In this document: one piece after another, positions 10,917 through 11,130 of the stretch
How the letters are laid out: every line of letters starts with the position of its first letter
How positions within the stretch are numbered: the first letter of the stretch is position 1
Source: Escherichia coli
Lineage (GTDB): Bacteria; Pseudomonadota; Gammaproteobacteria; Enterobacterales; Enterobacteriaceae
DNA length: 64,000 nt
Assembly: GCF_022846255.1 (NCBI RefSeq)
Contig: NZ_AP025682.1
Direction: 5' to 3' (one strand)
Position numbers and translations under genes: made by a program
Notes under the pieces: generated by a model
Seen by the model: the letters and a program-made list of their open reading frames with translations, nothing else
The model's database searches: none
What the model was told of the DNA's origin: nothing

Positions 10917-11130
10917 ATGCCGGATACGGCCTACGGATCGGCACAGACCTGTAGGCATGATAAGACGCGTCAAGCGTCGCATCAGGCATTGTGCGCCAGC
11001 TGCCGGATGCGGCGTGAACGCCTTATCCGGCCTACGGTTCGGCACAGACTTGTAGGCATGATAAGACGCGTCAGCGTCGCATCAGGCATTGTGCGCCAAC
11101 GGCCGGATGCGGCGTAAACGCCTTATCCGG
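10917..11130. repeat. BIME/REP cluster (two tandem ~105-110-bp units)
   Basis: Two near-identical tandem units, each with REP-like palindromes (GCCGGATGCGGCGTGAACGCCTTATCCGGCCTAC and TGTAGGCATGATAAGACGCGTCA); sits between convergent yjjW and yjjV. Confidence 0.85.

Follow-up and report, generated by a model that had tools for sequence, protein, structure and literature searches.

What fills the short spacer between the convergent genes yjjW and yjjV of Escherichia coli, and how did the sequence within it come to be repeated? In the window, by which we mean the whole stretch of 64,000 nucleotides of E. coli DNA that was analysed, a sequence-only reading had placed a tandemly duplicated BIME between these genes and had taken it for a recent local duplication of a REP module. 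REP sequences and BIMEs have been described as a class of elements since the 1980s–90s, and the locus raises the question of whether this array is anything new among them, how old it is, and what it may do at the ends of two genes transcribed towards each other. Our answer is that the array is nothing new: an E. coli BIME-2 of the ordinary kind, catalogued before, at a locus known in K-12 as REP352. The reading that we prefer, with a probability of about 0.88, is that the array in the window is the B2-lineage allele of this known BIME-2, homologous to REP352a-h, and that it is an old, locally amplified polymorphism with a probable bidirectional 3′-UTR and gyrase role.

Anatomy and class of the array

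The spacer between the two convergent genes runs from 10916 to 11131 (216 bp) and is filled entirely by the repeat array. RefSeq names the flanking genes yjjW and yjjV in E. coli LF82, whose sequence is 99.8% identical across 851 bp. The array is extragenic, lying between the two coding sequences and overlapping yjjV by only 4 nt, and two convergent transcripts meet at it, yjjI-yjjW on the plus strand and yjjU-yjjV on the minus strand. The features, in positions of the window, are as follows.

10052-10915, plus strand: yjjW coding sequence, YjjW glycyl-radical enzyme activase, 287 aa, stop TGA at 10913-10915 (ORF list; RefSeq annotation of LF82)
10919-10934, minus strand (GTAG-5′ convention): truncated Y REP remnant GCCGGATACGGCCTAC, a full Y lacking the 18-nt hairpin top
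10935-10950, no strand: head-to-head short linker (S type) GGATCGGCACAGACCT (sequence; locus-specific when compared with REP325)
10937-11037: repeat unit 1, 101 nt (Tandem Repeats Finder, repeat search, alignment)
10951-10988, plus strand (5′ GTAG): Z2-type REP of unit 1, GTAGGCATGATAAGACGCGTCAAGCGTCGCATCAGGCA (motif scan; near-identical to the Z2 of REP325)
10954-11032, minus strand: Rfam RF02564 naRNA4 match, Z2, linker and Y of unit 1, 76.5 bits (cmscan)
10989-11001, no strand: tail-to-tail linker of unit 1, TTGTGCGCCAGCT (sequence; comparison with REP325)
11002-11035, minus strand (GTAG head): Y-type REP of unit 1, GCCGGATGCGGCGTGAACGCCTTATCCGGCCTAC (consensus match; inverted repeat)
11036-11051, no strand: head-to-head short linker (S type) GGTTCGGCACAGACTT (sequence)
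11038-11137: repeat unit 2, 100 nt (Tandem Repeats Finder, repeat search, alignment)
11052-11088, plus strand: Z2-type REP of unit 2, variant with a 1-nt-shorter loop, GCGTCAGCGTCG (motif scan)
11055-11132, minus strand: Rfam RF02564 naRNA4 match, unit 2, 78.9 bits (cmscan)
11089-11101, no strand: tail-to-tail linker of unit 2, TTGTGCGCCAACG (sequence)
11102-11135, minus strand: Y-type REP of unit 2, with a 4-nt overlap with the yjjV coding sequence (consensus match; inverted repeat)
11132-11911, minus strand: yjjV coding sequence, TatD-family metal-dependent hydrolase, 259 aa (ORF list, RefSeq annotation, translation of the C-terminus)

Tandem Repeats Finder reports an array at 10927-11137 with a period of 100, 2.1 copies, 94% matches and a score of 380, and a second repeat search of the window gives direct repeats at a spacing of 100/101 nt. 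In a global alignment the two units are identical at 95 of 101 positions (94.1%), and differ by five substitutions and one 1-nt indel, which sits in the loop of the Z2 REP (GTCAAGCG versus GTCAGCG). When unit 2 was shuffled 1000 times and compared with unit 1 the mean identity was 52.1% and the maximum 58.9%. The description of two near-identical tandem units, separated by a few substitutions and a 1-bp indel, therefore stands, and the units are homologous. Their length had been put at about 105-110 bp and is in fact 101 and 100 nt. The extent had been given as 10917-11130; the whole repeated tract runs from the truncated Y REP at 10919 to 11137, 6 nt inside yjjV, and at position 10917 a mechanical ORF of 66 aa has its ATG, while no boundary of the repeat lies there.

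Each unit contains, as the sequence-only reading had it, two REP-type palindromes. A unit consists of a 16-nt linker, a Z2-type REP (37/38 nt), a 13-nt linker and an oppositely oriented 34-nt Y-type REP. Read across the array, the REPs are truncated Y, Z2, Y, Z2 and Y, and on the plus strand the Z2 REPs begin with 5′ GTAG and the Y REPs end with CTAC 3′. The arms of the REPs are 86-87% complementary in an inverted-repeat search. The 16-nt linkers of the units are GGTTCGGCACAGACTT or a close variant, and the 13-nt linkers TTGTGCGCCAACT or a close variant. At the position of the truncated remnant a full-length Y is present in E. coli ZH063 and in E. albertii; most E. coli alleles share the truncation.

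The Y REP of unit 1 matches the published E. coli REP consensus GCCGGATGCGGCGTGAACGCCTTATCCGGCCTAC (consensus from PMC12306157) at 34 of 34 positions and that of unit 2 at 33 of 34, and the Z2 REPs, which begin with GTAG, are near-identical to the Z2 of K-12 REP325. The high copy number expected of REPs is also seen, a query of 851 bp that contains the array having a median of 38 places per genome among the matches listed. BIME-2 elements are defined by y and z2 REPs, tandem copies, a short S linker and a copy number that varies between strains (Ton-Hoang et al, 2012, PMC3333891). The array has each of these: y and z2 alternate, the linkers are 16 nt head to head and 13 nt tail to tail, and the tandem copies vary in number. 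Both checks of identity as a BIME-2, on the match to Y and Z2 and on the alternating orientation, came out in favour. Together with the ORF list and the RefSeq annotation, the consensus match bears out the claim of a BIME between yjjW and yjjV.

BIME-1 elements likewise pair a Y REP with a second, inverse REP at the 3′ ends of genes, but they carry z1, have a long L linker with an IHF site and occur as single copies, whereas here the partner is of the Z2 type, the linker is 16 nt and the copies are in tandem. The IHF site is a feature of that long L linker (PMC3333891), and a pattern search found no IHF consensus WATCARNNNNTTR in 10916-11137. The IHF binding that had been attributed to the array belongs to BIME-1. 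Elsewhere the IHF consensus is frequent, with 12 matches in the window against 4.2 expected, a number reached in 0 of 100 shuffles; three of them cluster at 63506-63599 and none lies in the BIME.

The closest known relative is the K-12 array at yjjV-yjjW, which EcoCyc lists as REP352a-h, overlapping yjjV (bioRxiv 10.1101/2024.07.17.603846). The corresponding spacer of K-12 MG1655 measures 419 bp and contains 4.1 units. The two arrays share the locus, the flanking genes, the linkers, the 100/101-nt unit, the truncated Y remnant beside yjjW and the full Y REP over the end of yjjV. They differ in that K-12 has four units (eight REPs) against two in the window, and in unit variants that are a few substitutions apart. 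With the BIME-2 family at large, as classified by Bachellier and Gilson, the array shares the y/z2 alternation, the S linker, the variable tandem copies and the intergenic position at the 3′ ends of transcription units; there is no substantive difference, and gyrase cleavage of this array would be predicted from the family. REP325, in the yjdM-yjdN spacer of K-12, has the same unit architecture, the 100-nt length and near-identical Y and Z2 palindromes, and lies with the same polarity in the 3′ UTR of its upstream gene. It has six units and stands between tandem genes of one operon, whereas the window array stands between convergent genes, and since neither linker is shared the units are only ~82% identical overall.

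REP325 and the sucB-sucC BIME were used as comparison arrays because no other BIME-2 array was found in the window. The motif scan returned, besides the array, only two REP-like matches. One is a single palindrome, GTCGGATGCGGCGTACACGCCTTATCTGACCGAC, at 18752-18785, with six mismatches to the Y consensus, 29 nt past the stop of rsmC and upstream of three tandem tRNA-Leu genes (about 18923-19245). The other, at 43919-43951, is weaker, lies inside hsdR and is probably due to chance. The type I restriction-modification genes hsdR/M/S form part of a defence-type cluster at about 43200-55800 (LF82 record 4705717-4715093), which also holds a DUF262 protein, symE and a GmrSD-domain endonuclease; the stretch is the variable 'immigration control' region and is unrelated to the array.

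Both units match the Rfam model of naRNA4, RF02564, unit 1 at 76.5 bits and unit 2 at 78.9, where the gathering score is 59.5, and the matches span the full model (positions 1-77) in yjjV-sense polarity. It might be supposed from this that the units are genes for naRNA4-like nucleoid small RNAs, which together with HU would bridge DNA cruciforms and condense the chromosome. HU binding and nucleoid condensation were reported for naRNA4 of REP325 (Qian et al, 2015, PMC4550694), where the polarity is also co-directional with the upstream gene. However, RF02564 in effect models one REP325-type BIME-2 unit and the match therefore shows homology of the repeat, not function. The nucleoid role was moreover not reproduced in a 2026 preprint whose authors include the senior author of the original naRNA4 study: deletion or overexpression of REP325 had no effect on nucleoid volume, and neither REP-REP contacts in Hi-C nor a stable ternary complex were found (bioRxiv 10.64898/2026.03.23.713779). 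There is also no promoter-like site in the array, a scan of 10500-11600 having returned neither an intrinsic terminator nor a sigma-70 promoter match within it. We regard it as very improbable that the units are genes for such RNAs.

Copy number, age and origin

The number of units at this locus was surveyed with a flank-only BLAST query made of 300 bp of yjjW and 300 bp of yjjV, the span between the two matches giving the size of the spacer. In 59 rows spaced along a ranking of 5423 genomes there were alleles with 0 units (3 rows), 1 (20), 2 (10), 3 (3), 4 (6) and 5 (17); one of the two-unit alleles has an intact first Y REP and is 18 bp longer for it. The copy-number survey as a whole is a sample of about 110 genomes, in which arrays longer than about 800 bp split into separate matches. 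Across it the range is 0-9 units in E. coli, with 11 in Escherichia sp. MOD1-EC7003. Zero-unit alleles are of two kinds: in EC21Z-144 a full Y REP stands alone at the site, in 23CRST013 a truncated one. As alleles with no unit or one unit are common, no particular copy number is required.

The largest arrays observed are those of E. coli L16-131, with nine units in a spacer of 899 bp (locus L008, 4301-5199), and of MOD1-EC7003, with 11 (locus L021). In L16-131 the match was split, and an IS insertion was considered as the cause and rejected, since the 899-bp spacer is pure array. One of its units has lost 19 nt internally, from the Z2 REP and linker, and measures only 82 nt. The order of the unit types in this array suggests that a block of four units was duplicated.

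For the comparison of individual units the alleles of 17 genomes were read. The two units of the window differ from each other by 6-7 edits, whereas for each of them units 2-3 edits away are found in other strains. The Z2 loop that is 1 nt shorter in unit 2 is also present in GN25, ZH063, L16-131, AR_0104 and Escherichia sp. MOD1-EC7003. Averaged over units, the distance is 8.5 within strains and 9.7 between strains. Concerted evolution was considered and set aside, the within-strain distance being barely below the between-strain distance, so that there is no strong homogenisation.

Both flanks are near-identical to those of the window in 406 genomes, and 48 of these were sampled, including UTI89, UM146, LF82 and NCTC11151. 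The same two-unit span is present in 47 of the 48 genomes of this B2 lineage. The sole exception (locus L026, NZ_OZ547117.1, 400-520; flanks 99.5% identical) has one hybrid unit, of which the 5′ part is unit 1 of the window and the 3′ part unit 2. Such a hybrid is what in-register unequal exchange or slippage would be expected to leave, and the contraction gives a direct view of the way in which copy number is altered.

Beyond E. coli, a scan with a degenerate pattern in one genome per species gave four Escherichia loci and two chance matches, in a Bacteroidetes MAG and a Rickettsiales MAG, which were left out. E. albertii has, at the same site, one module with a full Y REP on either side. Escherichia sp. 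E1V33 has two units there, the first of which begins with ATCGG like the first unit of the window, and Escherichia sp. MOD1-EC7003 has its 11 units at this site too. The same scan, again with one genome per species, gave no locus in E. fergusonii or Salmonella. The presence of the element at the same site in E. albertii and in cryptic Escherichia lineages argues that the BIME predates E. coli.

These observations bear on the proposal of a recent duplication, by which a single REP module would have doubled in this strain and the units would be young paralogues with few mutations. It would fit two units that are adjacent, in register and 94% identical; one-unit alleles do exist in other strains, and change in copy number over a short time is real, as the one contraction within the lineage illustrates. 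Against this, the units are closer to units of other strains than to each other, all the variants that distinguish them, including the 1-nt indel, are common to other lineages or species, and the two-unit span is shared by almost all of the sampled lineage and is found, with the same beginning, in E1V33. A recent, strain-specific event strikes us as very unlikely. The comparison of copy number across strains, which the sequence-only reading had put forward as a check, gives 0-11 units and points to an old polymorphism rather than to a recent event. Of the 'recent local duplication' that it proposed, 'local' holds, given the locus-specific linkers, and 'recent' does not. Judged from the spread of copy number, the relationships of the units, the shared variants and the stability within the lineage, the duplication is old. 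The two-unit state is one allele of an old 0-11-unit polymorphism, and could equally be a contraction.

The linkers also speak to how the array grew. The REPs are of the Y and Z2 types found genome-wide, but the linkers are specific to the locus, TTCGGCACAGACTT and TTGTGCGCCAACT here against AGGGTGCGGGAATTT and AGTCGGCACCGTT in REP325, and those of the sucB-sucC BIME differ from both pairs. The array therefore grew through amplification in place and not through repeated insertion. The alternative would be that two REP doublets were inserted independently into the one spacer, by REPIN-type transposition through the RAYT/TnpA-REP protein. TnpA-REP is thought to spread REPs (PMC3333891, PMC8266576), and in the predicted minimum-free-energy fold the Y REP of unit 1 and the Z2 REP of unit 2 do form one long REPIN-like hairpin by pairing over the S linker. 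Yet the two units, and every allele of the locus, share both linkers, which are unlike those of REP325 and the sucB-sucC BIME, and the units are exactly in register at a 100/101-nt period, which makes separate insertions extremely unlikely. Amplification in place from one module accounts for the linkers. By comparison of the alleles, a single Y-Z2 module was at the site before the split of E. coli and E. albertii, the number of copies has since drifted within the range 0-11 through in-register unequal exchange or slippage among units, and the two-unit form is fixed in the lineage of the window.

A mechanical ORF of 66 codons with an ATG start crosses the array on the plus strand (10917-11117), its start being the start coordinate given by the sequence-only reading. 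That it is the gene of a small protein has in its favour that the ORF exists mechanically and coincides with those coordinates; it is made wholly of REP palindromes and linkers, begins 1 nt past the yjjW stop with no promoter match in the region, and, as units of 100/101 nt are not multiples of 3, keeps neither frame nor length across the 0-11-unit alleles, and it is almost certainly no gene.

The end of yjjV and predicted roles

At its right-hand edge the array reaches into yjjV. The stop codon TAG of yjjV is the reverse complement of 11132-11134, inside the GTAG head of the last Y REP, and the last Pro codon derives from the GG that follows this head; the last 6 nt of unit 2 are this Pro codon and the stop. 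Two types of right end are found among the alleles. In the first, to which the window and K-12 belong among others, yjjV directly adjoins a full Y REP and takes its stop codon from it; YjjV is 259 aa long and ends ...FNVP. In the second the Y REP is truncated and GAAGGGyAAACTACCCAC comes after it; yjjV has its own stop, 18 nt past the truncated REP, and the protein is 260 aa long and ends ...SVSG or ...NMRG. This second type is found in O157:H7 and in many alleles with 1, 3, 5 and 9 units. As the ends of yjjV differ by allele, rearrangement at the edge of the BIME has rewritten the last residues of the protein. The type 2 flank is present in E. albertii and type 1 in E1V33 and MOD1-EC7003, so that both right ends are old. 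The ends of yjjV were compared between the window and loci L003, L005 and L008-L016. In the second type the truncated 16-nt Y ends the array on the yjjV side as well, and some arrays are flanked by two truncated Y REPs in direct orientation, with the same 18-nt deletion at either end.

The scan of 10500-11600 gave two terminator-like matches, both inside yjjV. The idea that the array holds a canonical terminator or an independent transcription unit was rejected as neither a terminator nor a promoter match lies within it, and both convergent transcripts must therefore run into the array. The RNA is predicted to fold strongly in either direction, at −127.2 kcal/mol on the plus strand (z = −7.9 against shuffles) and −122.6 kcal/mol on the minus strand (z = −6.7). 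In the predicted fold the Y-REP stem of the yjjV transcript starts at the G that is the last base of the UAG stop, and the first hairpin of the yjjW transcript starts 13 nt past its UGA.

Gyrase binding, stabilisation of mRNA and recombination, which the sequence-only reading had named, are documented for this class of element (PMC3333891, PMC6379681). By analogy, the array is likely to be a bidirectional block of 3′-UTR hairpins, stabilising mRNA and attenuating transcription, and a gyrase site. REP hairpins would block 3′-to-5′ exonucleases and would partly stop read-through of both transcripts, and the array would serve as a bidirectional stabiliser and attenuator in place of an intrinsic terminator. 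REP325 is a partly Rho-dependent attenuator that also stabilises the mRNA upstream of it, and in convergent pairs that have a REP both genes are more highly expressed (bioRxiv 10.64898/2026.03.23.713779). In the same study the effects of REPs depend on context and mRNA half-lives are not uniformly changed by them.

The Y REPs would be preferred sites of gyrase binding and cleavage at a place where the positive supercoils of convergent transcription would gather. Gyrase cleavage sites are over-represented in BIME-2, mainly in y REPs and independently of transcription (PMC6379681); yjjV and yjjW are not named in the text supplements of this Topo-seq paper. BIME-2 elements have also been proposed as topological barriers (PMC10592627).

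Where a REP lies less than 16 nt away from a stop codon, the gene upstream of it is translated less, according to the account of Liang et al (2015) given in PMC12306157. Since the stop codon of yjjV shares its last base with the first REP stem of the transcript, it is plausible that REP-dependent ribosome stalling lowers the output of YjjV.

What the array may mean

For annotation, the value of these results is that the 216-bp spacer can be labelled as a BIME-2, naRNA4-like repeat, neither a gene nor a novel duplication. The array is also a clean strain marker of the minisatellite type, with steps of 100/101 nt and 0-11 copies across Escherichia.

The copy number of 0-11, the yjjV stop donated by a REP and the two right ends might together form a heritable and selectable 'dial' for the levels of YjjV and YjjW. 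We think this unlikely, but the routes by which it could work can be named: the proximity of the REP to the stop (through ribosome stalling and tmRNA), the stabilisation of mRNA and the insulation of convergent transcription. If it were true, the fixation of copy numbers in lineages, two units in the UTI89/LF82 group and five in others, would reflect selection and not drift.

The natural allelic series at this locus, with 0, 1, 2, 3, 4, 5 and 9 units and two 3′ ends of yjjV, is a test system in its own right, and could be used to probe the model of REPs as tunable 3′-UTR regulators at a convergent gene pair.
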